Below are positions 3,326 through 28,779 of a stretch of DNA of 32,000 bases, one piece after another. Positions within the stretch are counted from its first letter, which is position 1; every line of letters begins with the position of its first letter. Position numbers and translations under genes: made by a program. The notes under the pieces are model-generated. The model saw nothing but the letters and a program-made list of their open reading frames with translations, had not been told where the DNA came from and searched no databases. The DNA comes from Pseudomonadota bacterium (GTDB lineage Bacteria; Pseudomonadota; Alphaproteobacteria; Rhizobiales; Hyphomicrobiaceae). The stretch lies in NCBI GenBank assembly GCA_046048295.1, contig JBJOGJ010000005.1, positions 8,235-40,234 on the forward strand. The letters are read 5' to 3'.

Positions 3326-3406
3326 TTGTGTCAGCTACCGACCATGTCGCGGATTGTAGTGGGAGCTAGCACTACATGCAGATCATTGCAATCGGTCTGC
3401 GAATGG

Positions 3407-4540: not shown

Positions 4541-4577
4541 AAAAAAACAGGGCGGGCACCATTTGCAGGTGCCCGCC
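4541..4577 (-). terminator. Rho-independent terminator downstream of the antiporter gene
   Basis: Perfect 10-bp GC stem ggcgggcacc (4551-4560) / ggtgcccgcc (4568-4577) with a 7-nt loop. On the minus strand it is followed by a run of 7 U (aaaaaaa at 4541-4547). It lies 25 nt after the stop at 4602. Confidence 0.8.
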
Positions 4578-4601
4578 AGATACGACCTGACGCGTCGCAG
4601 T

Positions 4602-6295: not shown

Positions 6296-6481
6296 GACCT
6301 GGGTCTCCTCTAGACCCATTCAGCATAGCAACCGGATGTTGTAGCCGGTTGAATGCCGGGCTGCGGATTTGTTTAAAATTCGAATGAACTCGTGGATGGT
6401 GACGGCGTCCAAAAGACTATAGAGTTCGGTAATTCCGTCAGGAGCAGTTACAACCGGGTTTCAAAGGAGAGGAGAGCGAGC

Positions 6482-7546: not shown

Positions 7547-7588
7547 TCGGGTCTCTCATTTCGGCTTGAAATAGTCTGACAGAATGGA

Positions 7589-7613
7589 CGCAGCGGCCAC
7601 CGCCGCTGCGTTT
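7589..7613 (+). terminator. Probable rho-independent terminator after the Bug gene
   Basis: 9-bp stem cgcagcggc / gccgctgcg with loop cacc, followed by tttcgcattt; about 40 nt after the stop at 7546. Confidence 0.6.
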
Positions 7614-7685
7614 CGCATTTGCATCCTGGCCGAAGCGGTGCTTCGATAGAAGAAGTCAAAACAACAATGCTTGAGGGAGGCTCCG

Positions 7686-9259: not shown

Positions 9260-9282
9260 GTAGGGCGCGAAATGCGCCTACC
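9259..9282. terminator. GC hairpin between convergent genes (possible bidirectional terminator)
   Basis: ggtagg(g)cgc - gaaat - gcgcctacc, 9 bp with one bulge. It spans both stop codons (TAG 9257-9259, CTA 9278-9280). No U-tract. Confidence 0.35.
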
Positions 9283-10751: not shown

Positions 10752-11474
10752 CTAAAGTCCTCTCACGAGGGCGAGCAGGGTACCGGCATATTCAGATGCC
10801 GTCGCAAGCGGCACTTCCGAAGCATGTCGCTGGTAGAGCTTTATGGTCTCGAGGTTGACGCGCGGCCTGCCTGCCAACTCCTTCAGGAAAGCATCAGCCT
10901 CTCGAGCGAAGTCCGCTGCCGGCAGGACGCGGCTCGCAAGCCCGAACATGACCGCCTCCTGCGCGGAAATCTCCGACCCGGAATATATGAGGTAGGAAAG
11001 TGCTTTCGCGGGAACTTTCTTCAGCACCGCAGACATCGCGAGTGTAGGCGGAATGTTGTGCTTGATTTCTGGAAAAGAGAAACGAGCCGCATCAGAAGCG
11101 AGCGTGATGTCGGCACCGCCGCCAAGGGCCGAGCCGAAGCCGATTGCAGGACCATGGACCAGCGCCACAACCGGAATTGGACAGGCGTTGATGGCATCGT
11201 AGACTCCCAGCACCGCACCCATTTGCTGCACACGCACATCGTGCGGCGTCATCCCCTCGCGGCTCTCGCCTTTGCCGTCCCGCCCCTTGCAGAAGTACTC
11301 CCCCCGGCCCTCGATGGCGATCACGTTGATGTCGGCATTCCGGCCGAGATCGCCTATGAGGCCCGTTAGGCTCACCATCATCGGCCGACTGATCATATTG
11401 CCTTCGTCGGGGCGGTTTATGTCGATGCGCGCGACCTTGCCATCCGTCTTGACGATGTATTCGTGGTTTTCCAT
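10752..11474 (-). CDS. Enoyl-CoA hydratase/isomerase (crotonase) superfamily protein
   Basis: Oxyanion-hole and catalytic regions: VIAIEGRGEYFCKG, VVALVHGPAIGFGSALGGGADITLASDAARFSFPEIKHNI, SGSEISAQEAVMFGL. AAGGAA RBS. Starts 20 nt after the upstream stop. Confidence 0.85.
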   Translation of the reverse strand: MENHEYIVKTDGKVARIDINRPDEGNMISRPMMVSLTGLIGDLGRNADINVIAIEGRGEYFCKGRDGKGESREGMTPHDVRVQQMGAVLGVYDAINACPIPVVALVHGPAIGFGSALGGGADITLASDAARFSFPEIKHNIPPTLAMSAVLKKVPAKALSYLIYSGSEISAQEAVMFGLASRVLPAADFAREADAFLKELAGRPRVNLETIKLYQRHASEVPLATASEYAGTLLALVRGL

Positions 11475-11494: not shown

Positions 11495-13834
11495 TCAGGA
11501 TTTCTCACTTCGGGCTTTGGCAATGAGCTCGACAACACGATCGGGAAGAATCGGAGTTTCCGATATCCGGACACCGAAGGGACTGAGTGCATCCTCGACC
11601 GCGCCGACGATCGCTGCGATGGAGGCTATCGTACCGCCTTCACCTGCCCCCTTCACGCCCAGCGGATTCAACGGTGAAGGCGTCTCCATGTGATGGAGCT
11701 CGACGCGTGGCACATCCGGCGCAATCGGCAGGAGATATTCGGCAAAAGTCGTGGTAACTGGCTGACCATCGTCGCTGTGCCGGAGCCGTTCGAAAAGAGC
11801 ATTTCCGACACCATGCGCGACACCTCCAACGACCTGCCCCTCGACAATCTTAGGATTGATGGCTCGACCGCAGTCGTGGTTGACGACGAAGCGCAAGATC
11901 TTGATGTGCCCCGTCTCGATGTCCACCTCAACCTCGGCGACATGCGCGCTGTTGGAATAAGTGGACTGGTCGGGACGGAAGTGAGCGGTTGCCTCGAGTC
12001 CCGGCTCATAGTCCGTACGCATGGCATATCCGTACATCCCGACCGAATGAACGGCGACTTCACGCAGGCTCTTGCGCAGCCCGGGCGCACCTTTCACCTG
12101 GACGTTCCCATCGACTAGTTCGAGATCAGACGCGTCGGCCTCAAGGAGATCCGAGGCCACCTTCCTGATCTTCTCGCCAAGCTCGATCGCGGCAACATGT
12201 ACCGACGACCCGGCATTGACTGCCGTGCGGGCGGCAAACGTGCCGATCCCGAGCCCGGTCGCCGCGCTGTCGCCCGTTACGACATTTATGTCTTCGTAGG
12301 AGACGCCGAGTTGGTCAGCGGCAATCTGGGCAAGGGTCGTGTGGTGCGACTGACCCTGGGGCGTCGCCCCCGTGTAGAGCGTGATCTTGCCGGTCGTGGA
12401 AACGCGAAGGGTCGCACTTTCATAAGGTCCAAGCCCCGTAGCCTCGACGGCACTCGAGATCCCGACACCGATGTAGCGGCCGCGCTTGAGCGCCTCAGCC
12501 TGGCGGACAGAAAATTCTTTGTACCCTGCCGCTTCCAGAGCTTTTTCCTGGCAGGACGGATAATCCCCGCTGTCATATGTCACTGGGCGGCCGTCACGGA
12601 AAACGAGCCCGACTTTGTAAGGCATCTGCTCGGGCTTGACGAAGTTGCGGCGACGCACTTCGGCTCGGTCGATCCCGAGCTTCGAAGCAACAAGGTCCAT
12701 CATGCGCTCCATGGCGAACACCGCCTGCGGCCGGCCGGCACCGCGTACCGGGGTACACTGGATCTTGTTGGTATAGACGACGACGAGATCCATGGAGTAG
12801 GCCGGCAACAGATAGGGCCCCGGCACGGTCGTCGCTGCGATCCAAGGCAGCACGAGCCCCCAGGGGAGGTAGGCGCCGGCATCGTGGACAAGGCGACCAC
12901 GAAGACCGCGGAGACGTCCATCAGCCTCGACAGCAATCTCCAAGTCCCAATACTGGTCGCGCTCCTGATGGGTCGCCAGGAAGTTCTCGCGCCGATCCTC
13001 GATCCATTTCACCGGCCGGCCAAGTTTCATGCTGGCAACAGCGGCTACGGCATACTCAGGGTAGAACGCGCCCTTGGGCCCGAAGCCACCACCGACGTCC
13101 TGGGTAATGACTCGAACCTGGTGATCCGCGAGGTCGAGAACATCGAGGTAGGCGCGCTTGATTCTGTGCGAGCCCTGCGTCGATGCGTAGACCGTGAGCT
13201 GATCGATATTGCGATCATAATTCGCCAGTACACCGCGGCACTCGATGAAGAAAGGTCCGCCACGATGCTGGAAGAGCCGTTCCGAGAAGACGTAAGGCGC
13301 GTCGCGGAAGGCAGCTTCGATGTCACCCGCCGCTATCGGCACGCGCGCCGCGATATTATCGCCATTGCCGGCGTGGGCGACGGGAGCACGCACGTCCAGC
13401 CCGGAAAGGCAGTCGCTGACCGCGGGCAGGACATCGTAGTCGACATCGACAAGAGCGACGGCATCCTCTGCGATATGGCGCGTATCCGCTATGACCGCTG
13501 CAACCGGCTCGCCCACATAGCAAACCTCGTCGCGAGCCAGTGCGTAGGGAACGTGGAGCTGCTTGATGGCCGCGGGCGCGACGTACAATGGAAGCGGATT
13601 GCTGCGCATGGCTTCCGGTAAATCGGCGAACACGATAATGTCGTGCACGCCTGGAAGCGCTCTTGCCGCGGCAACGTCAATGGACAAGAGCTTGGCATGA
13701 GCGTGCGGACTTCGGACAAAAGCAACAGCCAGTGTGCCTGGCAGCTTGATGTCGTCGACGTAGCGGCCGTTACCGGTGAGAAGTGACGGATCCTCCTTGC
13801 GCAGGACACTCGCGCCGAACCAACGAGCCCCCAT
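11495..13834 (-). CDS. Xanthine dehydrogenase/aldehyde oxidase/CoxL-family molybdopterin-binding large subunit
   Basis: N-terminus: MGARWFGASVLRKEDPSLLTGNGRYVDDIKLPGTLAVAFVRSPHAHAKL. Active-site loop: CTPVRGAGRPQAVFAMER. C-terminal motif: NPLGVKGAGEGG. GGAGG lies 7 nt before ATG 13834, so the longer ORF from 13897 is trimmed. No 2Fe-2S domain is fused. Confidence 0.9.
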   Translation of the reverse strand: MGARWFGASVLRKEDPSLLTGNGRYVDDIKLPGTLAVAFVRSPHAHAKLLSIDVAAARALPGVHDIIVFADLPEAMRSNPLPLYVAPAAIKQLHVPYALARDEVCYVGEPVAAVIADTRHIAEDAVALVDVDYDVLPAVSDCLSGLDVRAPVAHAGNGDNIAARVPIAAGDIEAAFRDAPYVFSERLFQHRGGPFFIECRGVLANYDRNIDQLTVYASTQGSHRIKRAYLDVLDLADHQVRVITQDVGGGFGPKGAFYPEYAVAAVASMKLGRPVKWIEDRRENFLATHQERDQYWDLEIAVEADGRLRGLRGRLVHDAGAYLPWGLVLPWIAATTVPGPYLLPAYSMDLVVVYTNKIQCTPVRGAGRPQAVFAMERMMDLVASKLGIDRAEVRRRNFVKPEQMPYKVGLVFRDGRPVTYDSGDYPSCQEKALEAAGYKEFSVRQAEALKRGRYIGVGISSAVEATGLGPYESATLRVSTTGKITLYTGATPQGQSHHTTLAQIAADQLGVSYEDINVVTGDSAATGLGIGTFAARTAVNAGSSVHVAAIELGEKIRKVASDLLEADASDLELVDGNVQVKGAPGLRKSLREVAVHSVGMYGYAMRTDYEPGLEATAHFRPDQSTYSNSAHVAEVEVDIETGHIKILRFVVNHDCGRAINPKIVEGQVVGGVAHGVGNALFERLRHSDDGQPVTTTFAEYLLPIAPDVPRVELHHMETPSPLNPLGVKGAGEGGTIASIAAIVGAVEDALSPFGVRISETPILPDRVVELIAKARSEKS

Positions 13835-14080
13835 CAATAGGCCTCCCGGCATTTGCGTTCGTGGAATTCGCCGGAGCCCACCCTCCAGGTGAGGCAATGG
13901 TATGAGCTATGACCGCCTAATGGTTGATCGGCCACCCTTCGAAACTGCATTTCCTCACCCCGACGTTTGCTTCTTTGCCGCAATAACTTGCACGATTTGA
14001 CAGCCGCGATCCAGTACCATGCCAACCGATTTACTTGGGATGAGCCGGCAGCTAGTGTGCGCCGAAGCCAGGGGGATTCC

Positions 14081-14728
14081 ATGTTCTATGACGCAGTGAA
14101 GAACGACCACGGTCTCAAGTATGATCCAGTCAAGGCACTGGTCTGTCCGCGACCGATCGGCTGGGTTTCGACGCTGAGCAGCACGGGCGTCGCAAATCTT
14201 GCCCCCTACAGCTTCTTCAACATGGTCGCGGAGAAACCTGCCTACGTCTTCTTCTCGTCGAGCGGCTCGAAAGATAGTTGGCGCAACGCCGAGGCAACCG
14301 GCGAGTTCGTATTCTCCCTGGCCACCTACGAATTGCGGGACAGGATGAACATGACCGCGGCGGTCGTGCCACCAGAAGTAAGCGAATTCGAGCTTGCGGG
14401 ACTGACGCCAGCACCTTCCCACTTCGTGAAGCCGCCACGGGTCGCCGAAAGCCCTGCAGCCCTAGAATGCAGGTATTGGAAGACTGTGGAACTCCCAGAC
14501 CACGACGGCAAAGGCAAGCAACATGCCGTGGTCTTCGGACTGGTAGTCGGCATCCACATCGAGGAGCGGGCAATCAAGGACGGCATCATCGACACCGGCG
14601 CGCTCGGGCTCATAACCCGCCTCGGATACCGCGACTATGGCATTTTGCGCCCCGACGACGTCTTCACCATGGGCCAGCCGTATGTCGACGCCAACGGCAA
14701 TGTCGGGAAAAAACCTCCGCCGAAGTAG
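14081..14728 (+). CDS. Flavin reductase-like (FMN-binding split-barrel) protein
   Basis: RPIGWVSTLSSTGVANLAPYSFFN...VFSLATYELRDRMN...ESPAALECRY is typical of flavin reductase domain proteins. Start taken at ATG 14081 (MFYDAV...). Confidence 0.8.
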   Translation: MFYDAVKNDHGLKYDPVKALVCPRPIGWVSTLSSTGVANLAPYSFFNMVAEKPAYVFFSSSGSKDSWRNAEATGEFVFSLATYELRDRMNMTAAVVPPEVSEFELAGLTPAPSHFVKPPRVAESPAALECRYWKTVELPDHDGKGKQHAVVFGLVVGIHIEERAIKDGIIDTGALGLITRLGYRDYGILRPDDVFTMGQPYVDANGNVGKKPPPK

Positions 14729-14736: not shown

Positions 14737-15876
14737 CTATGTCGAGAGGATGTTGATCGAACAAGCCCCGTGGTCCAGCCCGGCAATACCGCCACCGGTA
14801 CAGTGGGCAAGCGCGACCCTGGCCCCCTCCACCTGACGGGCACCAGCCTCCCCACGCAAGTGCCATACAAGCTCGACGAGTTGGGCGGCCCCGGTAGCTC
14901 CGACTGGATGGCCTTTGCATAGAAGGCCACCCGACGGGTTGACCGGGATGCGGCCGCCAAGGGATGTGGCGCCTGATTCAAGTAGCGCCGCAGCCTCGCC
15001 GCGCCCGCAAAAGCCGAAAGCCTCATAATAAAGGAATTCGGCAATGGTGAAGGCGTCGTGCAGTTCGGCAACGTCGATGTCATCGGGGCCGATCCCGGAT
15101 TCCTCGTAGATCTGTCTTGCCGCGCGCATGGTGATCTCAGGCGTGGTCATGTCTCGAAAACCGGTCTTGTAGAGCCCGGAATTGAGGACCGAGCCCTTGA
15201 CCCAGACGGGCTTCTTCGCGGCTTGCTTCACCTTCTCGGCGCTGCAGAGAACGAGGGCGGCTGCGCCATCGCCGGTCGGACAGCAGTGGAGAAGCGTGAA
15301 CGGATCGCAGATCGGCCGCGTGCTCATTACCTCATCAACCGTCACCTCATTCTGATACTGGGCAAAAGGATTGAGCGCCGCATGACGATGGGCCTTTACG
15401 GCGACCCCGGCCAGTTGCTCACGCGTGATGCCGTGCTCGTGCATGTAGCGGTTCGCCCGCATGGCATAGAGCGCCGGCATGGTCAGACCGATGGCAACGT
15501 CCCAGTCGTCCGGCTGTCCTGGCAAAACACCACCGCCGAGCGCCGTCAACTTGTCGACCCCGATGACGAGGGCAACATCCCATCGCCCATCCGCAATCGC
15601 CATGTAGGCCTCTCGGAAGGCTGTCCCACCTGACGAGCATGCATTTTCGCAATTGACAACTGGCAGCCCCAGCATGCCGAGAGGCCGCAGAACCCTTTGC
15701 CCGACGAGCCGGCCGGAATAGGCCGAACCAAAATAGGCGGCCTCGATGTCCCGGCGGTCGAAACCGGAATCCACTATTGCCGCCTTGACCACCGGCCAGC
15801 CCAGGTCCTGGACCGAGAGCTCAGGGTACTTCTTGATACGGCACATCGCGGCGCCGGCAATCGCAACGTCACGCAT
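14737..15876 (-). CDS. SCP-x/thiolase-like acetyl-CoA C-acyltransferase (nucleophilic Cys present)
   Basis: VVNCENACSSGGTAF (nucleophile motif), NPSGGLLCKGHPVGATG (His), AHCTGGG. The HDCF-type loop reads ELHDAF. ATG 15876 lies 8 nt after the DUF35 stop. Confidence 0.85.
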   Translation of the reverse strand: MRDVAIAGAAMCRIKKYPELSVQDLGWPVVKAAIVDSGFDRRDIEAAYFGSAYSGRLVGQRVLRPLGMLGLPVVNCENACSSGGTAFREAYMAIADGRWDVALVIGVDKLTALGGGVLPGQPDDWDVAIGLTMPALYAMRANRYMHEHGITREQLAGVAVKAHRHAALNPFAQYQNEVTVDEVMSTRPICDPFTLLHCCPTGDGAAALVLCSAEKVKQAAKKPVWVKGSVLNSGLYKTGFRDMTTPEITMRAARQIYEESGIGPDDIDVAELHDAFTIAEFLYYEAFGFCGRGEAAALLESGATSLGGRIPVNPSGGLLCKGHPVGATGAAQLVELVWHLRGEAGARQVEGARVALAHCTGGGIAGLDHGACSINILST

Positions 15877-15884
15877 GGACTGTT

Positions 15885-16292
15885 TCAATCCTGTTTCCGG
15901 AAGCAGTGACTGAGGACAGGCGTACCGTCCTCCTGACGGTAGATTTCCTTTACGTCCAGCTCGACAGTGCAACCTATGGGCGGCGGCGACGACGGATCGC
16001 AGGCAATCGGCGCAGAGACACGCACCCCTTCCTCAAGGTCGATATAGGCGATGACATAAGGCACCCTCCAGCCTTTGCGGGCAACATGAACGACCGTGAA
16101 GGAATAGAGCGTGCCGGTGCGGGGGAGTTGCACCTTTTCGATCTTCGTCGACCAGCACGATGGGCAAATCCCAGGCTTCGGGAAAACGACACTGCGGCAA
16201 TTGGTACATATGCCCCCAAACATGAAGGGCACATCCTCAACATAGGCGACGGAGCCCGGCAGGGCCCATGCCTCCGCAGCCTGTTCGTTCAT
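15885..16292 (-). CDS. DUF35 (OB-fold plus zinc-ribbon) thiolase-associated protein
   Basis: 4-Cys ribbon CTNCRSVVFPKPGICPSCWS followed by an OB-fold segment (GTLYSFTVVH...PYVIAYIDLEEGVRV). GGGAGGAG RBS before ATG 16292 (MNEQAA...). Confidence 0.85.
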   Translation of the reverse strand: MNEQAAEAWALPGSVAYVEDVPFMFGGICTNCRSVVFPKPGICPSCWSTKIEKVQLPRTGTLYSFTVVHVARKGWRVPYVIAYIDLEEGVRVSAPIACDPSSPPPIGCTVELDVKEIYRQEDGTPVLSHCFRKQD

Positions 16293-16428
16293 CGTTTCTC
16301 CTCCCGCCCGCAATTGCAGTCGAAAGTGGATACGATTATTCTCCCCTCGTCAATCGCGCGTGGATCAACCCGCGCGCTCCAAGAACAATCGAATGCGCGC
16401 CTCCGGAAGGCGTGCCGGAGGAAATTGC

Positions 16429-17649
16429 ATGGCGGCCGGCCACGGAGCCCTCGGTCACATCCGCGTTCTCGATCTGACCGTATTCCTGTCGGGGCCCTAT
16501 GCGACGCAGATGCTCGGCGATCTCGGCGCCGATGTCATCAAGATCGAGCCGATGGACGGCGACCAGACACGCAACCTGCCGCCCAACTTCGTCGGCGAAG
16601 ACAGCGTCTACTATCATAGCCTGAACCGGAACAAGCGTAGCGTAGCGGTCGACTTGCGAAAGGCCGAAGGGCAACGGCTGGTCCAGCGTCTCGCAGAGCA
16701 GGCCGACATACTCATCGAAAACAATCGCCCAGGGGGCATGGCCAAATACGGGCTCGGCTACGATGACCTGAAGCGGATCAACCCGCGACTGGTCTATTGC
16801 TCGATCTCCGGCTTCGGACAGGACGGCCCCTTCCGGGACATGCCGGCCTACGACATGGTCGTCCAGGCCATATCGGGCGGCATGAGCCTTACCGGCGAAC
16901 CGGACGGCAGGCCGGTGCGCTCAGGCATTCCCATCGGCGACATTGGTGCCGCCCTCCACGCTGTTATCGGTATACTTGCTGCAATCGAGGCGCGACACAG
17001 AACTGGACTGGGACAGTATATCGATATCGCCATGTTGGACTGCCAGATCGCCATGCTGAGCTATCAGGCGGCATATTTTCTCGCATCCGGCAATGTCCCG
17101 AAGCCGCAAGGGCGCGGCCATGATTCCATACCGACCTACCGCTCATTCACGGCCGGTGACGGGCGCGAATTCGTAATTTGCGCGAATACGGATCGAATGT
17201 GGCGCTCGCTTTGCACGGCGGTCGGCCGAGAGGATCTAGGGCGCGACTCCCGACTTGCGACGAGACCGCAGCGGTATGAGCATCGCCATGAAATCTGGCA
17301 CGCACTGGAAACCGCGTTTCGTGAAAAGACGGCGGCCGAATGGGTCGAAATCCTTCGCATTGCAGAGGTTCCCGTTGGAGAAGTCAACACGCTCGACCAT
17401 GCGCTTACCCACCCGCAGGTCCAGCACCGGGATATGGTTCTCAACCTGAAGAGCGCCGGGTTGCACGTCGAAGTCGCTGGCAATCCCGTGAAAATGCCGG
17501 AATGGGGTGAACACCCTCCACGGTTTCCTCCCCGACATGGTGGCGATACGCGCCAGGTTCTGGCCGACGAACTCCGATTGAGCGAAACTGAAATCGACGA
17601 ACTGATAGCGATTGGCGCTGTTGGCGTACCCAAATCGGAGCGGGCCTAG
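16429..17649 (+). CDS. Family III (CaiB/BaiF/Frc-type) CoA-transferase
   Basis: IRVLDLTVFLSGPYATQMLGDLGADVIKIEP...YYHSLNRNKRSVAVDL...ILIENNRPG...GIPIGDIGAAL (catalytic Asp region). GGAGGA lies 6-7 nt before ATG 16429. Confidence 0.9.
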   Translation: MAAGHGALGHIRVLDLTVFLSGPYATQMLGDLGADVIKIEPMDGDQTRNLPPNFVGEDSVYYHSLNRNKRSVAVDLRKAEGQRLVQRLAEQADILIENNRPGGMAKYGLGYDDLKRINPRLVYCSISGFGQDGPFRDMPAYDMVVQAISGGMSLTGEPDGRPVRSGIPIGDIGAALHAVIGILAAIEARHRTGLGQYIDIAMLDCQIAMLSYQAAYFLASGNVPKPQGRGHDSIPTYRSFTAGDGREFVICANTDRMWRSLCTAVGREDLGRDSRLATRPQRYEHRHEIWHALETAFREKTAAEWVEILRIAEVPVGEVNTLDHALTHPQVQHRDMVLNLKSAGLHVEVAGNPVKMPEWGEHPPRFPPRHGGDTRQVLADELRLSETEIDELIAIGAVGVPKSERA

Positions 17650-17651
17650 CC

Positions 17652-18440
17652 ATGCGGTTCCGACTGAAATCTGGCCTGACGCTCAACTACCGGACGCGGG
17701 GCCGCGGCCGCACGGTGGTGCTTCTGCACCCGATCGGCTGTCAGCTTGGCATTTGGGACGGCGTGATCGAGGAATTGGAGAATTATTGTCGGCCCATTGC
17801 TGTGGACTTCCGTGGACACGGAGCAAGCGACGGGTCAGCCGAAGCCTATTCGCTGAGAGATCTCGCCTTCGATATAATTGAACTGGTTGAGGCTGTAGGT
17901 GCACCGCCGGCAGTCGTCGCGGGATGCTCCATGGGGGGAATGGTTGCTCAGGCAATCGCCGTAGAGGCAACCGAGATCGTAGCAGGCTTCGTCATCGCCA
18001 ACACCGGCTATACTCGCAATCAAGCGGCCCGTGAAATGCTGGAAGCGCGAGCAAAGGCAGCGGAAGGCGGAATGCCCGGCGTCATCGAGAACACGCTCGC
18101 ACGCTGGTTCAACGAGCGCTATCGTCTACTCGATCCGGAATCCGTTTCCCGTGCTCGCAATTGGCTGCTCGACGCAGACCCCGTTCAGCACGCGCACGGA
18201 TGGCGGGCAATCCGCGATCTCGATTACGCTGAGAGGCTTATCAACGTCGACAGGCCATCACTTGCAATCGCGGGCACCGAAGACCAGTCGGTCGGCACCG
18301 ATGCCATTAAGTCCATGGCTGCCGCCTTGAAGAACTGTACCTATCACCAAATAGAGGGCGCGGGCCATCTAAGCCCGCTGGAGCAGCCGCGAATATTCGC
18401 CCGCACGCTGCGCGATTTCCTCGAGACTTTGCCCGATTGA
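17652..18440 (+). CDS. Alpha/beta-fold hydrolase (3-oxoadipate enol-lactonase-like)
   Basis: VVLLHPIG, nucleophile elbow GCSMGGMVA, and a C-terminal GAGHLSPLEQP His motif. Starts 2 nt after the CoA-transferase stop. Confidence 0.85.
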   Translation: MRFRLKSGLTLNYRTRGRGRTVVLLHPIGCQLGIWDGVIEELENYCRPIAVDFRGHGASDGSAEAYSLRDLAFDIIELVEAVGAPPAVVAGCSMGGMVAQAIAVEATEIVAGFVIANTGYTRNQAAREMLEARAKAAEGGMPGVIENTLARWFNERYRLLDPESVSRARNWLLDADPVQHAHGWRAIRDLDYAERLINVDRPSLAIAGTEDQSVGTDAIKSMAAALKNCTYHQIEGAGHLSPLEQPRIFARTLRDFLETLPD

Positions 18441-18455
18441 GAAAGGACCGGTCCA

Positions 18456-20135
18456 ATGCCGAACGAAATGGCGTCACCCATCACCAGCGGCAGCAAGCGG
18501 CGTCCCGCCAGAACCCTCGCCGAGCACATCGCAGCACTCGACGCGGCGGGTCTTCTCGTCAGGATCGACAAGCCGATAAACAAGGACACTGAGCTTCATC
18601 CCCTGGTCAGGCTGCAATTCCTGGGCGGGCTTCCGGAAAACGAGCGCAAAGCGTTCCTGTTTACAAATGTCGTCGATGCTAAGGGCCGCAAGTACGAAAT
18701 GCCGGTGCTGCTTGGCGCATTGTCGTCCTCACAGCAAATCTATGCGCTTGGCATGGGCTGCGAACCGGAAGAGATCGGCGATGCTTGGAACCATGCGATG
18801 TCGAACCCGATCGCACCGGTCGAAATCAAGGATGCCGCCTGCCAGGAAATCGTCATCACCGGCGAAGATCTCAGAAAACAGGGTGGCGGCGTAGCCATGC
18901 TGCCGGTACCCGTCTCGACACCGGGCTTCGATGCAGCACCCTACCTCACCGCGACGCTCTGCATCACGAAGGATCCCGATACCGGCATCCAGAACATGGG
19001 CATGTATCGCGCGGCACTGAAGGCAACAGACCGCCTCGCCGTTCGAATGGTGGCGCGCCCGGGTGGCGCCGGCGGCTGGGTACATTGGCTGAAATACCGC
19101 GAACGTGGAGAACGGATGCCCATCGCGATCGCCATCGGAGCGGCACCCATCGTGGCGTTCACATCCCCCCAGAAGCTCGCCATCGACATCGACGAACTCG
19201 CCGTATCCGGCGGGCTGGCGGGCGAGCCGATCGAGACTGTCAAATGCAAGACTGTCGACCTGATGGTACCCGCCAACGCGGAGATCGTCATCGAAGGCGA
19301 GATCGAGGCTGGCGTCCTCGAGCCCGAAGCGCCCTTCGGCGAAAGCAACGGCTACGTCGCATTGGAAGGCTTCAACATGCCGATGAAGGTGACCGCCATT
19401 ACGCACCGGAGAAATCCGGTATTCAACGCGATAATAAGCCAGGTCACGCCAAGCGAATCGAGCATGATCAAGAAGGTGGCCTACGAGCCGCTCTTCCTGC
19501 GCCACCTGAAGAAGGAACTGGGCATAAAGGGCATCCGTCAGGTCTGCATGCACGAGGCGTTGACCAATCTCCGCCCGGTGATCTTCCTTCAGTTCGACTA
19601 CGGCACGCCGCAAACCGAGGTCTGGCGCGGGCTCCATGGCGCGTCAACTCTGCTCGCCTACTGCGGCAAACTCGTCGTAGCGGTGAGCGACGACATTGAC
19701 CCGCGATCGGTCGATGCAGTCCTTTGGTCAATCGCCTACCGGTCGAAACCGGGCGAAGACGCCTTGATTGTGCCGTACCGCGCAGGTTCCCAAGGTTCGC
19801 AATATTCCGGTGGCAAGACCGACTCGAGCCTGCTTATCGATGCTACACGCAAGCGCCTCATGGCACCGCTCGCCCTCCCGAGGAAGGAATATATGGAGCG
19901 GGCACAGGAGATCTGGGCCGAACTCGGCCTGCCTCCGTTACGCCTGAACTCACCCTGGCACGGCTATACGCTCGGCCACTGGAACGAGAACTGGGAGCGG
20001 TTCGCACAGCGTGCAGTAGCCGGAGAATGGGAGGCCAACGGCATCGAGACATTGGCCCGTCAACGCGACGGCCTAGAGGCAGAAACATCGGTATGGCTGG
20101 TCGAGGAAGATGGCGGCAAGGATGCAAAGCGCTGA
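18456..20135 (+). CDS. UbiD-family (prFMN-dependent) decarboxylase, long form (559 aa)
   Basis: UbiD motifs: GIQNMGMYR, GGWVHWLKY, DELAVSGGLAGEPIETVKCKTVDLMVPANAEIVIEGEI, EAPFGESNGY. It has about 60 extra C-terminal residues compared with the roughly 490-500 aa of E. coli UbiD or yeast Fdc1. Confidence 0.9.
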   Translation: MPNEMASPITSGSKRRPARTLAEHIAALDAAGLLVRIDKPINKDTELHPLVRLQFLGGLPENERKAFLFTNVVDAKGRKYEMPVLLGALSSSQQIYALGMGCEPEEIGDAWNHAMSNPIAPVEIKDAACQEIVITGEDLRKQGGGVAMLPVPVSTPGFDAAPYLTATLCITKDPDTGIQNMGMYRAALKATDRLAVRMVARPGGAGGWVHWLKYRERGERMPIAIAIGAAPIVAFTSPQKLAIDIDELAVSGGLAGEPIETVKCKTVDLMVPANAEIVIEGEIEAGVLEPEAPFGESNGYVALEGFNMPMKVTAITHRRNPVFNAIISQVTPSESSMIKKVAYEPLFLRHLKKELGIKGIRQVCMHEALTNLRPVIFLQFDYGTPQTEVWRGLHGASTLLAYCGKLVVAVSDDIDPRSVDAVLWSIAYRSKPGEDALIVPYRAGSQGSQYSGGKTDSSLLIDATRKRLMAPLALPRKEYMERAQEIWAELGLPPLRLNSPWHGYTLGHWNENWERFAQRAVAGEWEANGIETLARQRDGLEAETSVWLVEEDGGKDAKR

Positions 20136-20222: not shown

Positions 20223-21473
20223 ATGACCGGTAGCGGCTGGGGCGTCCTACGCCATCGAGACTTTTCTCTGGTTTGCGGTGCCCGGTTCGCAAATACCCTC
20301 GCCAATCACATTATTCAGGTTGCCATCGCCTGGTACGTCTACGACGTGACTGGGGATGCATTCGCACTGGCATACTTGGGACTTGCGGCATTCGTACCGG
20401 CAGTACTTCTCGTCCTCTTCACCGGCTACATAGCTGACCATTTCGACCGGCGCCTTCTGATGATGGGCGCCAGCCTCGTCTTCACTCTTTCGGCGCTCGC
20501 ATTGCTGCTCGTCGTAGCCTCCGGCAGTAATCTCATCTGGCCGATTTATCTGGTCGTCATATTCGTGAGCGGTTCGCGATCGTTCTTCAACACGGCGTCC
20601 CGGGCAATAGTCCCGAGCCTCGTGCCGAAGGATCAGCTGGCGAATGGCGTGGCATTCGCATCTGGCGCAGAGCAGGCTGCAACCATTGCCGGCCCGGCAT
20701 TGGGAGGCATACTATATCTATTCGGATCATTGTTCCCGTTCACCACCGCAACCGTGACGCTGGCGGCAGCCATGGTAGCTGCCTTCCTCGTTCGCTTCCG
20801 CGACATTCCGCAGAAGGCCTCCGAACCCGTATCGTTCAAGGTGCTTGCTGCCGGTTTCACCTTCATGCGGTCGAAACCGGTCGTGTTGGCCGCAATTTCA
20901 CTCGACGCGTTCGTGGGCCTGCTGTCGAACGTTGTTATTCTCCTGCCAATCTACGCGAAGGACATACTGCACGTCGGCCCCGTCGGCCACGGCTTCCTGC
21001 GCACGGCACCGGCTGTCGGTGCACTCCTGATGGCGATGTGGCTTGCCAACAACCAGTTCGTGAAACGCCAATCCGGCGCCAAGATGCTGATTTCCGTTGG
21101 CGTGTTCGGCGTGGCAACACTGGTCTTCGGGTTTTCGTACAGCTTCTACCTCTCACTACTGGCCTTGGCCATTGTCGGCGCATCCGACATGGTCAGCGTC
21201 GTTATTCGCCACACGCTGATCCAGGCCGACACCCCGAACGAACTCCGCGGACGGGTGTCTTCGGTGAATTCACTGTTCACCAGTGCGTCCAGCGAACTCG
21301 GCCGGGCGCGCGCCGGACTGCTCGCAGGCCTGTTCGGCCCCGTTGCCTCCGTTGCCATCGGCGGCATCGCGGCACTCGCCATCACAGCATTGTGGCCTGT
21401 GCTATTCAAGGATCTCTGGCGACGGGACCATCTTGTCGAAGAAGACACCCAGCCGGCAACCGCAAAGTCTTGA
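20223..21473 (+). CDS. MFS transporter (EntS/MFS_3-like, about 12 TM)
   Basis: WGVLRHRDFSLVCGARFANTLANHIIQVAIAWYVY..., then GYIADHFDRRLLMM between TM2 and TM3; hydrophobic throughout. Confidence 0.85.
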   Translation: MTGSGWGVLRHRDFSLVCGARFANTLANHIIQVAIAWYVYDVTGDAFALAYLGLAAFVPAVLLVLFTGYIADHFDRRLLMMGASLVFTLSALALLLVVASGSNLIWPIYLVVIFVSGSRSFFNTASRAIVPSLVPKDQLANGVAFASGAEQAATIAGPALGGILYLFGSLFPFTTATVTLAAAMVAAFLVRFRDIPQKASEPVSFKVLAAGFTFMRSKPVVLAAISLDAFVGLLSNVVILLPIYAKDILHVGPVGHGFLRTAPAVGALLMAMWLANNQFVKRQSGAKMLISVGVFGVATLVFGFSYSFYLSLLALAIVGASDMVSVVIRHTLIQADTPNELRGRVSSVNSLFTSASSELGRARAGLLAGLFGPVASVAIGGIAALAITALWPVLFKDLWRRDHLVEEDTQPATAKS

Positions 21474-21559
21474 GGACAATCTCAGGCGCTTGATCGCCAT
21501 GAGGCCAGGATCTAGACTTCTCCCAACTGAAGATCAGGCCGTCAGAGGAGACGAATTCC

Positions 21560-22437
21560 ATGACCGTGGCGGACACTGCGATCCGGGTCGAGCCGCTCAG
21601 CAAGCAGATTGGCGGCCGCGTGACGGGGGTGGACCTTACAAAGGTTCTCCCGGAAGAAACCATCAGCCAGATCCGAGACGCTTTCCATGCCTATTCCGTT
21701 CTGCTTTTTCCAGCCCAGGAGATCGGACCGGACGACCAGATCCGCTTTGCAGCAATGTTTGGCAAAGCCGACGGAAACGCCAAGTCCCGCAAGTCGGACA
21801 AGGACAAACTCGAGCGCCAGAAGGGCATAATGTACGTAACCAACATTCGGGAAAACGGCGTGCCGATCGGCTCCCTCCCGGATGGAGAAATGCACTTCCA
21901 CGCCGACGGTGCCCACAGACAGATACCCTACCGCTGCACGACGCTCTATGCCCAGCGCCTGCCGTCTCGCGGAGGCGAAACGAAATTCGCCAACCTGTAC
22001 GCCGCCTATGAGGCCCTCCCCGTCTCGCTAAAAGAACGCCTCGAAGGTCGCAAGGCGCTATACGCACACGAAACATCTGCGACGCTGCGTGATCAGATTA
22101 AAGACTTGGGCAATCCACTGGTCAACCAGGCAGTTCACAACCTGGTGTCGACGCACCCGGTGACGGGACGCAAGTCTCTATACATGAGCAGGCTGATGAC
22201 GCGCATATCCTCGACATGGACGCAGGTGAGAGCGAAGACCTTCTTGCTGAGCTTTTCGAACATGCGGAAAAGCCTGAGTTTGTCTATGAGCACAAGTGGA
22301 CCGTCGATGACCTCATCATTTGGGACAACCGCTGCGTCAACCATGCGCGCAACGACTTCCCAGAGGACGAGGTGCGACTCCTGCGACGCGTAACCGTTTC
22401 GGAAACGAACGACACATCGACCGTTCCGGAATACTGA
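21560..22437 (+). pseudogene. TauD/TfdA-family Fe(II)/2-oxoglutarate dioxygenase interrupted by a 1-nt frameshift near 22200
   Basis: The frame from 21560 encodes the N-terminal about 214 aa (HFHADG H-x-D, GGETKFANLYAAYEALP, STHPVTGRKSLYMSRLMT) and then becomes Ser/Thr-rich nonsense. The frame open from 22102 continues with HILDMDAGESEDLLAELFEHAEKPEFVYEHKWTVDDLIIWDNRCVNHARNDF...RLLRRVTV. The two parts join into a normal protein of about 290 aa. Confidence 0.85.
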
Positions 22438-22557
22438 GAAACCTGAAACGTTTCGCCTGACGAGGCGCTTAGGAACTGCCGCCTCCGTCACAGTCGAGAC
22501 AATAAAATTGAATGGGCCGCAAGAGCCTGAACCAATATTTCATCACTGGAGGAAACC

Positions 22558-23601
22558 ATGCTCAAGCAATTTCGGCTGACTAGTCTGGCAAGAATGCTCG
22601 CCGCCTTGGTCGGGCTGACAGCGCTCGTCACCAACGCCAGGGCAGAGGACGCCCGCGCATTCTTCAAGGGCAAGCATATAACGATCCTGATACCGTTCGC
22701 TCCAGGCGGCGGTTACGACGCCTACGCACGCCTCCTTGCACCGCACTTCGGCAAGTATCTCGACGCCCAGTTCATCATCAAGAACATGCCGGGCGGCGGC
22801 GGCCTCCTTGCGCTTGGCCAACTCGCAGCAGCCAAGCCGGATGGCACTACGATCATGCTCGCCGAGGGGGCCGGCGCAGCGCTCGCTCAACTACAGGAAC
22901 GTAGCAGCGTCCGCTACGATCTCCTCAAGGTCGGGCACCTCGGGACCGTTGCAGAATCCCCGTGGCTCGTGCTGACCAGCCCGAAACTGGATATCAAGAC
23001 GCTCGACGACCTGATCAAGAAGGGCAAGTCTGGCCTGAGCTGGGCCGCAACGGGCCCCGCCGCCGCTCTCGCAAGCGGCCCCAAGATGGCATGTGACGTA
23101 CTGGGCATGGACAAGTGCAAGATCGTGCTCGGCTACAAGGGCAGCGCGGCCGCGGCACTGGCCGTAGCGAAAGGCGAAATGGACGCGATGTACGTTTCAG
23201 ATACTTCGGCCGAGAAATACGTCAACAATGGCGATTTGGTCCCGATCGTCGTCTTCGGCCGCAAGCGTTCGCGCTACATTCCCGCCACCGCGACGATCTT
23301 CGAAATGCGCAAGCTCTCCAAGGATGACGAGTGGATCATCGACTTTTTTTCGAACATGCAGGCCCTGGGCCGCATCCTTATCGTCACTCAGGGGACACCG
23401 CCAGACCGCCTCAAGCTCCTTCAGGACATGACAAAGGCTGTATTAACAGATCCCGCCGTCGTGGCAGAATCTGAAAAGCGGCGGCGCGAAATTGTCTATA
23501 GCGATGGCGAAACGACGAAAAGGAACGTCGAAAGCGTACTCAAGATCGATTCGCCGGAGAAGAAGAAGCGGGCGCTTTCTGTATTGAATGTGGAAGGGTA
23601 G
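22558..23601 (+). CDS. Bug-family (TctC-like) periplasmic substrate-binding protein
   Basis: Signal peptide LAALVGLTALVTNARA, then FFKGKHITILIPFAPGGGYDAYARL...IKNMPGGGG. GGAGGA RBS. Confidence 0.9.
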   Translation: MLKQFRLTSLARMLAALVGLTALVTNARAEDARAFFKGKHITILIPFAPGGGYDAYARLLAPHFGKYLDAQFIIKNMPGGGGLLALGQLAAAKPDGTTIMLAEGAGAALAQLQERSSVRYDLLKVGHLGTVAESPWLVLTSPKLDIKTLDDLIKKGKSGLSWAATGPAAALASGPKMACDVLGMDKCKIVLGYKGSAAAALAVAKGEMDAMYVSDTSAEKYVNNGDLVPIVVFGRKRSRYIPATATIFEMRKLSKDDEWIIDFFSNMQALGRILIVTQGTPPDRLKLLQDMTKAVLTDPAVVAESEKRRREIVYSDGETTKRNVESVLKIDSPEKKKRALSVLNVEG

Positions 23602-23688
23602 GTGACGCTTCGGCCGCATTGTCCGGTGATGAAATTGCGCCTACCTTCGCAGTAAAGGGAAAAAACGGAACAACGCCAGGAGACCGCC

Positions 23689-24753
23689 ATGGGTGTAATG
23701 AGCATTGACTGCGACGCACACGTCATCGAGACGCCGAAGACATGGGAGTACATGGAGCCGGAGGACCGGAAATACCAGCCGGTCGTCGTCAGGCTGGCAG
23801 GCAGCGAGCAGCGGCTCCAGGGTGCCGACGAGAAGCAGCGCCAGTACTGGGCGATGGACGGAAGACTTGTGCCACGCGAACGCAACGTTGGTGACGACAC
23901 CGACAAGGCCACGCGTGAGATGGAGGACATTCCGGCCCGCCTGAAGCATATGGACGAATTGCATGTCGATATCCAGGTGCTTTTCCCGAGCCTCTGGCTC
24001 CGCCCGATCACCCACGATCCCAAGCTCGAGCTCGCGATGGCGCGCAGCTACAATCGCTGGACAGCAGAGGTGAGCAGCAAGAGCGGCGGGCGCATGCGTT
24101 GGGTCGTCATTCCGCCGTTACTTTCGCTGAACAACGGCTCGATCGTCCGCGATGAGCTGGTGTGGGCCAAGCAGAACGGCGCGGTCGGGATTCACATGTG
24201 CGGCTACTCCTGCGACAAGGAGATGACCGACCCGTTTTTCCAGCCATTCTTCAAGATGGCTGAGGAACTCGACATGCCGATCTGTTTCCACGCTGGTAAC
24301 CAAAGCTTCACAATCCACGACTTTCACATCAATTCAGACGGCTATCCGAAGTTCAAGGTGCCGGTCATAGCCGCGTTCAACTCCCTCCTACTGCACGAAA
24401 TTCCGAAGCGCTATCCTGGCCTCCGCTGGGCATTTGCCGAAACGGGCGCCATGTGGGTTCCCTACGTCCTGCACGAAACCTGGCGTCGATACAGGATGCG
24501 CGGCAAGTCCTTCGACATGGAAGGAGCGCTCGAGGCCAACAACCTTTTCGTCGCCGCACAGGCCAACGAGGACATTCCCTATCTTGCCAAGGTAGCTGGC
24601 GAGAACTGGATCATGATGGCGACGGACTATGGCCATGCGGATACATCGAGCGAGATAGATGCGATGCTGAAGATCGAGCAACGCAACGAAATGTCGGATA
24701 CGCTGAAGCAGAAGGTGCTCCGCGACAACGCCGCAAAATTCTACAAGCTCTGA
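23689..24753 (+). CDS. Amidohydrolase_2 (ACMSD/LigW/LigI-type metal-dependent hydrolase or decarboxylase) family protein
   Basis: N-terminal SIDCDAHVIE, mid GIHMCGY...PICFHAG, C-terminal ATDYGHAD...RDNAAKFY; this is the TIM-barrel amidohydrolase_2 pattern. Confidence 0.75.
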   Translation: MGVMSIDCDAHVIETPKTWEYMEPEDRKYQPVVVRLAGSEQRLQGADEKQRQYWAMDGRLVPRERNVGDDTDKATREMEDIPARLKHMDELHVDIQVLFPSLWLRPITHDPKLELAMARSYNRWTAEVSSKSGGRMRWVVIPPLLSLNNGSIVRDELVWAKQNGAVGIHMCGYSCDKEMTDPFFQPFFKMAEELDMPICFHAGNQSFTIHDFHINSDGYPKFKVPVIAAFNSLLLHEIPKRYPGLRWAFAETGAMWVPYVLHETWRRYRMRGKSFDMEGALEANNLFVAAQANEDIPYLAKVAGENWIMMATDYGHADTSSEIDAMLKIEQRNEMSDTLKQKVLRDNAAKFYKL

Positions 24754-24811: not shown

Positions 24812-25219
24812 CTATGCCGGCTCGAACTTCGGAATTGTCAGCTCTGGCGTGACGTCATCGAACACAACCTTCACCGGCATGTCGCAAACAACCTTGCCGG
24901 GTTCGATCCCGACAATGTTGGCCATCATCCGCGGCCCCTCCGCTAGCTCAACCACAGCCACGACGTAGGGTAGCTCGCCCTCCCATCCCTTGTGATACAG
25001 GCGGTGGTAAGTGACGAAGGTGTGAACCTTCCCTGCCCCCGATGCCTCGGTCCACCCGAAATCGATGCTGCCGCAGTGCGGGCAGATCGTGGTCGGCGGG
25101 AACCAGGACTTGCTGCAATTGTTGCACTTCGGGATCTTAAGCTTGTGCTCCCGGGCTGCCACCCAGAACGGCTCCGCCTCGGGCGAAATGTGGGGGATCG
25201 GCTTCTTGTAGTCGCTCAT
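24812..25219 (-). CDS. DUF35 (OB-fold plus zinc-ribbon) thiolase-associated protein
   Basis: MSDYKKPIPHISPEAEPFW..., ribbon CNNCSKSWFPPTTICPHCGS, OB segment GKVHTFVTYH...PYVVAVVELAEG. ATG 25219 overlaps the upstream stop as ATGA. The 235-aa ORF-track version is an Arg-rich upstream extension and is rejected. Confidence 0.85.
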   Translation of the reverse strand: MSDYKKPIPHISPEAEPFWVAAREHKLKIPKCNNCSKSWFPPTTICPHCGSIDFGWTEASGAGKVHTFVTYHRLYHKGWEGELPYVVAVVELAEGPRMMANIVGIEPGKVVCDMPVKVVFDDVTPELTIPKFEPA

Positions 25220-26409
25220 TTTTTGCTCCCGAGAATCAGTGCCGTCTCGCAAACCGTATTGCCGCCATGGCCCGAGACGAGGCCGACCTCGGCATCCTTC
25301 ACCTGGCGGTCCGGACCGTATATGCCCTGCAGCTGGCGAACGCCTTCGACAACTTGCAGCATACCTTCCACGTGGGCTTCCGAGAGCTGACCTCCGGAAG
25401 TGTTCGTCGGCATGGCTCCATCGAGCCGAAGCGCTCCGGAAGCCACGAATTCTCCGCCCTCCCCCTTTTTGCAGAAGCCATAATCCTCGAGCTGTGCGAG
25501 GACCATGTAGGTGAAGCAATCGTAGATTTGCGCGAAATCGATATCATTGGGTCCGACGCCCGCCATGGCGTATGCGGTCTTGCCGGCCTCGATCGCACCT
25601 GTGTGGGTGCCATTATCGTTGTTCTGCCAACCGGTCAGGTTGTTGAATGTACCGAAACCCTTGATATAGACCGGACGCTGCCTGAGATCCTTCGCCCGCT
25701 CCGCCGAGGTCACGACCACGGCACCCGCGGCATCCGTCTGCAGCGAACAGTCGTAAAGGCCGAACGGCTCGACGATCATGCGCCCTGCAAGATAGTCCTC
25801 CATCGTCAGAGGCTTCTTCATGACCGCTTCGGGGTTGCGAAGGGCATGCTCCCGGAAGGCCACCGCGATATGCCCGAAGTGCTCGCGCGTCGTGCCATAG
25901 TCATGCATGTGGCGGCGGGCACCGAGCGCGTGGGCAGCAACCGCACTGAAAAATCCGAGCTCAGGCCCGAACTCGGAACTTTCCATCTGCTGCGGACGGC
26001 CGGAACTGCGCATGTGGCTGGCTGTACTGGCATGCACACGCGACCAGTTGTTGCGGCCGTAACCGACCAGCACATTGGTGGCGAGGCCGGCGTCGATGAC
26101 CATTGCCGCCAACCCCACGGCCAACGCCTGGCTTGCCCCGCCATTCGTCAGCGTCGTCGAGAAGCGAGCGTCGATCCCGAGTCGCTCGCCCACAACCTGA
26201 TGGAACGTGTAGATCTCATCAGGGCCGCGGCAGATGAGGCCATCGATGTCCTTCATCTTGAGGCCGGCGTCGTCGAGCGCGGCCGCCATCGCCTGCTCGA
26301 GCAATCCGAGCGACGAGACGCCCGGCACCTTGCCAAGTCGGCTCTTTCCCGTACCGACGATGGCACAGCGATTACGCAGATGCTTGGATGGCTCGAGTGG
26401 CATTGTCAT
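25216..26409 (-). CDS. Thiolase-like (SCP-x/Ltp-type) protein lacking the nucleophilic cysteine
   Basis: Aligns without gaps by eye to the 14737..15876 thiolase. NACSSG is replaced by NGGASQ and AHCTGGG by VSGHGGN. His is kept (SEAHVEG). The loop reads IYDCF. The start overlaps the CoA-transferase stop (ATGA). Confidence 0.8.
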   Translation of the reverse strand: MTMPLEPSKHLRNRCAIVGTGKSRLGKVPGVSSLGLLEQAMAAALDDAGLKMKDIDGLICRGPDEIYTFHQVVGERLGIDARFSTTLTNGGASQALAVGLAAMVIDAGLATNVLVGYGRNNWSRVHASTASHMRSSGRPQQMESSEFGPELGFFSAVAAHALGARRHMHDYGTTREHFGHIAVAFREHALRNPEAVMKKPLTMEDYLAGRMIVEPFGLYDCSLQTDAAGAVVVTSAERAKDLRQRPVYIKGFGTFNNLTGWQNNDNGTHTGAIEAGKTAYAMAGVGPNDIDFAQIYDCFTYMVLAQLEDYGFCKKGEGGEFVASGALRLDGAMPTNTSGGQLSEAHVEGMLQVVEGVRQLQGIYGPDRQVKDAEVGLVSGHGGNTVCETALILGSKK

Positions 26410-27563: not shown

Positions 27564-27625
27564 TAGATTCTCCTTTGGAAAATGCCTGTCTACACTCGGA
27601 ATTCGCGCGGCTCCATCCAGTCCCG

Positions 27626-28657: not shown

Positions 28658-28779
28658 GATTGTCTCCTCCTGGCACCTGAAGATGGCCTGCGCCGGTTCT
28701 GCCCTGCGCAACACTGGGGGCACGCGCCCGATTGCAGTGAACCATTAGGCCCAGCGGACGTCAATCGCGGGTTGAGCGG

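Follow-up and report, generated by a model that had tools for sequence, protein, structure and literature searches.

UbiD-family decarboxylases, which depend on prenylated flavin mononucleotide (prFMN), are sought as catalysts of reversible (de)carboxylation; their known substrates are electron-rich rings, and to our knowledge only about a dozen substrate classes have been described. The pairing of such an enzyme with a molybdenum (Mo) enzyme is documented in lumazine cluster I of Cupriavidus sp. LA-1, which encodes the Mo-dehydrogenase LuDH, the isomerase DHLI, the UbiD-type decarboxylase XCDC (LA1_0150) and UbiX, and in whose pathway oxidation precedes decarboxylation (PMC12391406). In HmfF, the UbiD-family enzyme of furandicarboxylate degradation, furan specificity is set by His296 (PMC7976604). 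A full-text search of the literature on UbiD/UbiX/molybdenum gene clusters returned no characterised example besides the lumazine cluster. The subject here is a UbiD-family gene on a 32,000-nucleotide stretch (the window) of contig JBJOGJ010000005.1 (C5), part of a 3.9-Mb, 357-contig, 94.8% complete assembly of a bacterium of the Hyphomicrobiaceae. As judged by sequence comparison, its product is neither UbiD proper nor HmfF, nor is it close to phthaloyl-coenzyme A (CoA) decarboxylase; it belongs to a deep, uncharacterised clade whose conserved working partner is most likely a Mo-hydroxylase of the quinoline-oxidoreductase/ketone-dehydrogenase type rather than a CoA-transferase.

An earlier note on this DNA, made from the sequence alone, had described a module of three tightly packed genes, and this packing was borne out when open reading frames, gene junctions and Pfam families were read. 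The trio, together with the nearby Mo-hydroxylase and crotonase genes, is as follows.

16429–17649, + strand: family III CoA-transferase, CaiB/BbsF-like (Pfam CoA_transf_3, E 1.6e-129)
17652–18440, + strand: alpha/beta hydrolase of 262 amino acids, PcaD-like (Pfam Abhydrolase_6/_1, E 1e-22 to 1e-23)
18456–20135, + strand: UbiD-family prFMN decarboxylase of 559 amino acids, 'long UbiD' clade (Pfam UbiD/UbiD_N/UbiD_C)
11495–13897, − strand: Mo-hydroxylase large subunit of the CoxL/Qor/Kdh type (Pfam; active-site loop TPVRGAGRPQ)
10752–11474, − strand: crotonase-family protein, downstream of CoxL (Pfam ECH_1)

The CoA-transferase frame spans 16360–17649, with the ATG at 16429 as its likely start, and ends in a TAG at 17649 that is separated by 2 nt from the hydrolase ATG at 17652 (TAG-cc-ATG). 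The hydrolase in turn ends in a TGA at 18440, 15 nt before the UbiD ATG at 18456 (TGA-gaaaggaccggtcca-ATG), and this gap holds a Shine–Dalgarno-like GAAAGGA. No terminator-like site was seen between the trio genes in a promoter/terminator scan that was otherwise uninformative. The CoA-transferase reaches no NCBIfam equivalog. The hydrolase carries the motifs of a Ser-Asp-His triad and resembles 3-oxoadipate enol-lactonase (PcaD) below threshold (TIGR02427, 186 bits against a cut-off of 255.85); its top match in the PDB is the enol-lactonase 2xua (E 8e-24), and its nearest relatives are enol-lactonases and esterases, not thioesterases, although a weak match to the Pfam Thioesterase family (E 5.5e-6) is also present.

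All three UbiD domains of the window protein, UbiD_N, UbiD (Rift-related) and UbiD_C, score above their Pfam cut-offs (177.1, 41.0 and 32.9 bits against 23.3–24.3), with E 3.3e-52 for the main match. An AlphaFold2 model (mean predicted local distance difference test score of 77.9) retrieved UbiD structures in Foldseek with E values down to 4e-37. The motifs NMGMYR, HWLKY and FGESNGY, which the earlier note had reported as intact, were all found in the translation, and N180, R185, H210, E247, E291 and E296 are aligned, in E. coli UbiD and/or the HmfF of known structure (PtHmfF), to residues of metal/prFMN binding and of the Glu-Arg-Glu network. These six residues are invariant in 33 homologues; by analogy with published work on Fdc1 and UbiD, they would have the same catalytic roles here. 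The C-terminal extension, put at about 60 residues in that note, runs for ~65–70 residues past the end of E. coli UbiD (about residues 490–555). It is Trp-rich, with W487, P500, W501, G503, Y504, W509, W513 and W525 near-invariant in the 33 homologues, and is therefore a conserved element, not junk. In the AlphaFold2 model, the extension is predicted to form three to four helices, and a fold search gave no match for it beyond the UbiD core.

Two maximum likelihood trees were constructed from orthologues, the genome's own paralogues, E. coli UbiD and PtHmfF, the second with the addition of a bona fide HmfF from the canonical hmfF-hmfG-TctC-hmfH ... hmfABC locus of Cupriavidus necator plasmid pENH92. 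Phthaloyl-CoA decarboxylase, AroY, VdcC, Fdc1 and XCDC lie outside these trees, and the comparison with them rests on bit scores against the PDB. Both trees place the window UbiD in a distinct 'long UbiD' clade (support 100/100; stem of 2.1–2.65 substitutions per site), which it shares with four further paralogues of this genome (50–60% identity) and a gene from a Neorhizobium petrolearium plasmid. E. coli UbiD clusters elsewhere, with a set from Clostridia and Desulfobacterales. Consistent with this, the window protein misses the canonical UbiD equivalog in NCBIfam by a wide margin (PRK10922, 149.8 bits against a cut-off of 788), and none of eight other UbiD paralogues of the genome reaches it (at most 177 bits). 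An identity as canonical UbiD, the 4-hydroxy-3-polyprenylbenzoate decarboxylase, is ruled out by this score and by the trees, and the earlier view of a catabolic enzyme outside ubiquinone synthesis, for which a phylogeny had been proposed as the check, holds.

Among solved structures PtHmfF matches best (157 bits at 29% identity), E. coli UbiD is next (134 bits), and phthaloyl-CoA decarboxylase comes last of the 40 solved UbiD matches (47.6 and 46.4 bits, E 8e-12). PtHmfF and the Cupriavidus HmfF nonetheless pair with each other (100/97), apart from the 'long UbiD' clade. PtHmfF shares ~50% identity with proteobacterial plasmid HmfFs, including that of the pENH92 hmf cluster, whereas the window UbiD matches the Cupriavidus HmfF at 31% and over its N-terminal 360 residues only. 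The position of HmfF His296 is occupied by Ser335, inside the clade-invariant stretch SQVTPSES. An HmfF identity is thus ruled out by the 29–31% identity, the separate clade, the replacement of the furan-specifying His by Ser and the absence of ubiX from the window. Elsewhere in the genome, the 542-residue UbiD paralogue at G000:C122:10336-10923 is sister to the pair of PtHmfF and Cupriavidus HmfF (95/87); on this placement it, rather than the window UbiD, is the genome's better candidate for a decarboxylase of the furandicarboxylate type.

To identify conserved neighbours, 33 loci with UbiD orthologues (54–81% identity) from Hyphomicrobiales, other Alphaproteobacteria, Burkholderiales and one Acidobacteriota metagenome-assembled genome (MAG) were compared by tblastn and by clustering of all open reading frames, with a subset of 21 loci flanked by at least 5 kb on both sides. 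Neighbours were found as follows.

CoxL, orthologues of 11495–13897 (60–84% identity): 21 of 33 loci, plus one cut at the locus edge; 16 of 21 well-flanked loci
CoxS: 19 of 33; 14 of 21
CoxM: 19 of 33; 13 of 21
CoxG: 15 of 33; 11 of 21
TctC-type binding protein: 15 of 33
crotonase, orthologues (51–61% identity) next to CoxL: 8 of 33; 6 of 21
hydrolase orthologues: 7–8 of 33, all alphaproteobacterial; 4 of 21
CoA-transferase, within 10 kb: 4 of 33; 2 of 21
thiolase and DUF35 partner: 3 of 33 each; 2 of 21 each

The strongest neighbour signal is thus the Mo-hydroxylase, and the link to a Mo-hydroxylase and a crotonase to which the earlier note had pointed is confirmed. Its proposal that the CoA-transferase and UbiD form the functional core fared worse, with the transferase in so few loci and phthaloyl-CoA decarboxylase the weakest solved match, and phthaloyl-CoA decarboxylase logic was ruled out as the core on these two grounds. 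Nor is the trio co-conserved among relatives in general: the exact order CoA-transferase-hydrolase-UbiD was found again only in a genome of the same genus (L011/L015), and a genome of the same family (G018) has a 70% UbiD orthologue with only TctC genes beside it.

The typical layout in Alphaproteobacteria is CoxM-CoxS-CoxL-hydrolase-UbiD-CoxG-TctC, and that in Burkholderiales, checked with Pfam, is TctC-UbiD-CoxM-CoxS-CoxL-crotonase-CoxG. In a second group of Burkholderiales, the genes around this core encode other enzymes: a different crotonase, a DLH-like hydrolase, an SGL lactonase and a TIM-barrel protein. The set of decarboxylase, Mo-hydroxylase, hydrolase/lactonase and crotonase thus recurs in function, including where single genes are not orthologous. 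The pairing reaches beyond this subclade, too: on the Neorhizobium plasmid, a 59% UbiD paralogue has a Mo-hydroxylase large-subunit gene on each side, and its operon includes ubiX. Among cultured bacteria, the orthologue is carried by Propylenella binzhouense L72 (72% identity) and Shinella sp. CPCC 100929, and the 59% paralogue by Neorhizobium petrolearium OS53 and Sinorhizobium fredii NGR234. The TctC protein beside UbiD in Burkholderiales matches BugE, a terephthalate-binding protein, BugD and Bug27 among the solved binding proteins of tripartite tricarboxylate transporters (TTT) without discriminating between them. Four related Burkholderiales MAGs (L022, L024, L028 and L040, at ~1000–9900) carry a complete gene set for the 4,5-cleavage of protocatechuate (LigABC, with a pair of Amidohydro_2 proteins and an RraA-like aldolase) and an aldo-keto reductase directly upstream, on the same strand, of TctC-UbiD-CoxMSL-crotonase-CoxG. 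Three tandem long-clade UbiD genes are found in each of a Paracoccaceae MAG (L041:10001-15100) and a Pseudomonadota MAG (L042:3732-8900), flanked by a TetR regulator, a thiamine diphosphate enzyme and an FMN-dependent dehydrogenase; neither locus has a Mo-hydroxylase.

The CoxL gene of the window lies 4.6 kb from UbiD, and in most orthologous loci the two genes are adjacent. The TPVRGAGRPQ loop of the window CoxL is not that of a carbon monoxide dehydrogenase. Its best matches in the PDB are 6-hydroxypseudooxynicotine dehydrogenase (7dqx) and quinoline 2-oxidoreductase (1t3q), both at ~490 bits, against 307 bits for 4-hydroxybenzoyl-CoA reductase. An aldehyde oxidoreductase is disfavoured, as enzymes of that type score at most 157 bits against the ~490 bits of the N-heterocycle hydroxylases. 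Because of this similarity profile, and of the NicX-family genes that flank the homologous loci L012 and L014, an N-heteroaromatic substrate is favoured. The same protein is 35% identical to HmfA, to which it is no closer than to the 18 other CoxL paralogues of the genome.

In the genome of the same genus, crotonase, CoxL and CoxS follow one another (crotonase<-CoxL<-CoxS), and the region continues with TctAB and TctC and then with the flavin-reductase and remaining genes; no CoxM was found there within the ~35 kb examined. By nucleotide synteny, the window lacks the 4.3-kb CoxS-TctAB-TctC segment of L015 between 13834 and 14081, where no remnant of CoxS is detectable, and it has no TctA or TctB; the loss may be a real deletion or an assembly join. 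Within the assembly, contig C59 holds the nearest complete CoxG-M-S set, with a CoxL of its own. A lone CoxL beside the UbiD orthologue is likewise seen in L025, L032, L043 and L044.

A Flavoprotein-family profile search of the whole assembly, of the kind the earlier note had called for, gave two matches, on contigs C209 and C45, and none in the window. Only the first is a ubiX.

C209:106–753, − strand: ubiX, 215 amino acids (NF004685, 249 bits against a cut-off of 188; TIGR00421, 230.5 against 108.9)

The match on C45, a 427-residue open frame scoring 108.7 bits, is putatively Dfp-like, to judge from its length. UbiD-family matches in the assembly number 19, two of them fragments at contig ends, and a single ubiX apparently serves them all. 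Relatives with similar expansions are the same-genus genome (G001, 27 UbiD matches) and the same-family genome (G018, 28 matches), with one ubiX each. One ubiX for 19–28 scattered UbiDs, as in these three genomes, is therefore the rule in this lineage, and the absence of ubiX from the locus, true of the window as the earlier note said, is not the anomaly that 'without UbiX' suggested; for annotators, a missing local ubiX is no evidence against UbiD function. A UbiD match of any kind is absent from 26 of 30 relatives, and UbiD is therefore not a housekeeping gene here.

For seven of the genome's 19 UbiD matches, a CoxL-type gene is no more than 5 kb away, where ~6% would be expected at random (rough binomial p ~1e-4). 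Paralogues directly beside CoxL-type genes are found at C171:4395-8149 and C21:1019-4665 and on C130, C145, C27 and C79, and some of these lie outside the long clade. On C171 and C21, UbiD is followed by CoxL with no CoxS match on the contig, and the genome as a whole has 19 CoxL and 11 CoxS matches.

Taken together, we consider it somewhat probable (about 0.58) that the window UbiD uses prFMN to decarboxylate a free (hetero)aromatic acid non-oxidatively, in a pathway where this step is coupled to Mo-hydroxylation and the CoA enzymes act downstream. What we infer for such a pathway is the class of substrate, the sequence of reactions and the tasks of the accessory enzymes. The starting compound would be a (poly)carboxylated aromatic acid, most likely an N-heteroaromatic one related to pyridine or quinoline, imported by a TTT or major facilitator superfamily (MFS) transporter, and the Mo enzyme would hydroxylate it before or after the UbiD enzyme decarboxylates the free acid, with prFMN supplied by the single ubiX elsewhere in the genome. 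Later ring-opened or side-chain intermediates would then be processed as CoA thioesters by the PcaD-like hydrolase, the crotonase, the CoA-transferase and the thiolase/DUF35 pair, and the accessory set of CoA-transferase, thiolase and hydrolase would be specific to this lineage. Pyridine-2,4-dicarboxylate or isonicotinate-type acids are speculative candidate substrates, suggested by the adjacency of the lig cluster in Burkholderiales and by the CoA-dependent catabolism of isonicotinate.

Several observations weigh against this proposal. The window CoxL has no CoxS, CoxM or CoxG beside it, and its hydroxylase may be served by subunits in trans or may be inactive or impaired. Roughly one in four of the well-flanked orthologues lacks a Mo-hydroxylase in its vicinity. 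The 4,5-cleavage set adjacent to the four Burkholderiales loci hints at a benzenoid product, not a heterocycle. Finally, the crotonase beside CoxL indicates that some step of the pathway involves CoA thioesters, and the substrate of the hydroxylase may itself be an acyl-CoA, as with furoyl-CoA dehydrogenase.

The alternative that survives best, though we hold it unlikely, is a hydroxylase-free route peculiar to this genus, in which the CoA-transferase, the crotonase and the BbsAB-like thiolase would shorten a side chain to an aroyl-CoA, the hydrolase would act as thioesterase and UbiD would decarboxylate the acid so released. Such a route would account for the synteny with the same-genus genome of the whole block of flavin reductase, thiolase/DUF35, CoA-transferase, hydrolase and UbiD, for the Thioesterase match of the hydrolase and for the missing CoxS. 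Pfam scans of the block, however, show no gene for an acyl-CoA dehydrogenase or a hydroxyacyl-CoA dehydrogenase, the hydrolase has its nearest relatives among enol-lactonases and esterases, and the CoxL-crotonase pair is intact in the relative (82% and 76% identity); the arrangement itself is limited to one genus, with loose variants in three other loci.

The scheme of anaerobic phthalate degradation, in which the CoA-transferase would convert a dicarboxylic (hetero)aromatic acid to its CoA thioester for decarboxylation by UbiD, was the one favoured by the earlier note and now appears quite improbable. It draws on the 2- and 15-nt gaps within the trio, on the same gene order in L011/L015 and on the CoA chemistry implied by the nearby crotonase and thiolase genes. 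Against these stand the low similarity to phthaloyl-CoA decarboxylase, the rarity of the transferase near UbiD orthologues, the G018 orthologue that has TctC genes alone for neighbours, and the fact that the CoA-transferase co-varies with the BbsAB-like thiolase pair and not with UbiD. A furan analogue, in which UbiD would act on 2,5-furandicarboxylate, the CoA-transferase would replace furoyl-CoA ligase, CoxL would be a furoyl-CoA dehydrogenase, the PcaD-like hydrolase would open an enol-lactone and the crotonase would hydrolyse 2-oxoglutaroyl-CoA, is very improbable, since the fit of the enzyme set to HmfABCDE/HmfF chemistry (PMC8091172) and the place of PtHmfF as best solved match in sequence and fold are opposed by low identity to both HmfFs, their grouping away from the clade, Ser335 at the specificity position, a CoxL no nearer to HmfA than to its own paralogues, a gene order of M-S-L instead of hmfA-B-C, and the lack of a ligase and of an adjacent UbiX.

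Other genes of the window lie between CoxL and the trio and on either side of both.

14081–14728, + strand: flavin-reductase-like protein (PF01613; Pfam), start inferred from same-genus synteny
14737–15972, − strand: SCP-x type thiolase, part of a BbsAB-like pair (Pfam; BbsB-like NCBIfam match below cut-off)
15885–16313, − strand: DUF35/ChsH2 OB-fold thiolase partner (Pfam; BbsA-like NCBIfam match below cut-off)

The flavin-reductase-like gene is syntenic with its counterpart in L015 (77% identity). The thiolase/DUF35 pair (14737–16313) is divergent from the CoA-transferase and travels with it in L015, L027 and L045. The crotonase is generic by both NCBIfam and PDB comparison. Downstream of it lie two metallo-beta-lactamase-fold genes with a 4-nt overlap (7671–9259, +) and a gene of the Glu/Leu/Phe/Val-dehydrogenase family (9278–10393, −), all below NCBIfam equivalog cut-offs. 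Downstream of UbiD, at 20223–24753 (+), an EntS-like MFS transporter, a TauD-family dioxygenase, a TctC protein and an Amidohydro_2 protein of the ACMSD/LigW type are encoded, none of them syntenic with the same-genus relative. Further on, 25216–28723 (−) holds a second set of SCP-x thiolase, family III CoA-transferase and TctC, which duplicates the enzyme types beside UbiD.

The clade to which the window UbiD belongs is abundant, with at least 8000 database proteins at E <= 0.001, the best 120 of which share at least 67% identity. It is set deeply apart from the characterised UbiDs, has an additional conserved C-terminal element and is consistently tied to Mo-hydroxylases of the N-heterocycle type. 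Identification of its substrate would add a new decarboxylase specificity and would probably bring to light a route, widespread in soil and fresh water, for ring acids of the pyridine/quinoline type or other polycarboxylated ones. Distinctive of the window are the lineage-specific accessory set, the CoxL without partner genes, the long-clade UbiD with its extension and the genomic setting of 19 UbiDs with one ubiX. A broader and more doubtful proposal, which we offer tentatively, is that the Hyphomicrobiaceae-like arsenal of 19–28 prFMN decarboxylases with one UbiX, about a third of them wired to CoxL and several of these without genes for the iron–sulfur and flavin adenine dinucleotide partners, may be a hydroxylate-and-decarboxylate funnel for polycarboxylated N-heteroaromatic or humic-type acids, in which the long clade would be a dedicated class with a new family of substrates and possibly a physical coupling to the hydroxylase.

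Compared with known systems, the window UbiD shares superfamily, fold and catalytic residues with E. coli UbiD, as well as the C-terminal helix up to the start of the extension, and differs from it in equivalog score and clade. With phthaloyl-CoA decarboxylase and succinyl-CoA:phthalate CoA-transferase (PDB 8pmk, 8oz5), the locus has in common a family III CoA-transferase gene beside a UbiD-family gene; that system is anaerobic and its decarboxylase the most distant of the solved UbiDs, whereas the pairing in the window is unconserved and set in an aerobic-type context with a Mo-hydroxylase. The Hmf pathway (Cupriavidus basilensis HMF14; PtHmfF 6h6v/6h6x) offers the same combination of UbiD, three-subunit Mo-hydroxylase and crotonase-family hydrolase, but the window CoxL has 800 residues against the 1012 of HmfA, whose extra C-terminal part has no counterpart, and the window clade differs in the order of its hydroxylase genes, with neither a CoA ligase nor an adjacent UbiX in the window. 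Of published systems, the lumazine cluster of Cupriavidus LA-1 comes closest, but the window is not a member of it: neither an amidase-signature DHLI isomerase nor a pterin/cytosine deaminase appeared in Pfam scans of the window or the orthologous loci, and the lumazine pathway is ruled out by the absence of these defining enzymes. The window cluster also lacks UbiX, and has instead a crotonase, a hydrolase, a CoA-transferase and a thiolase. Some relatives of the LA-1 cluster, like the window, carry the gene for the Mo-binding subunit alone (PMC12391406), and both are aerobic proteobacterial catabolic loci that pair a CoxL-like Mo-dehydrogenase with a divergent prFMN-dependent UbiD, which in LA-1 acts on an N-heteroaromatic acid.

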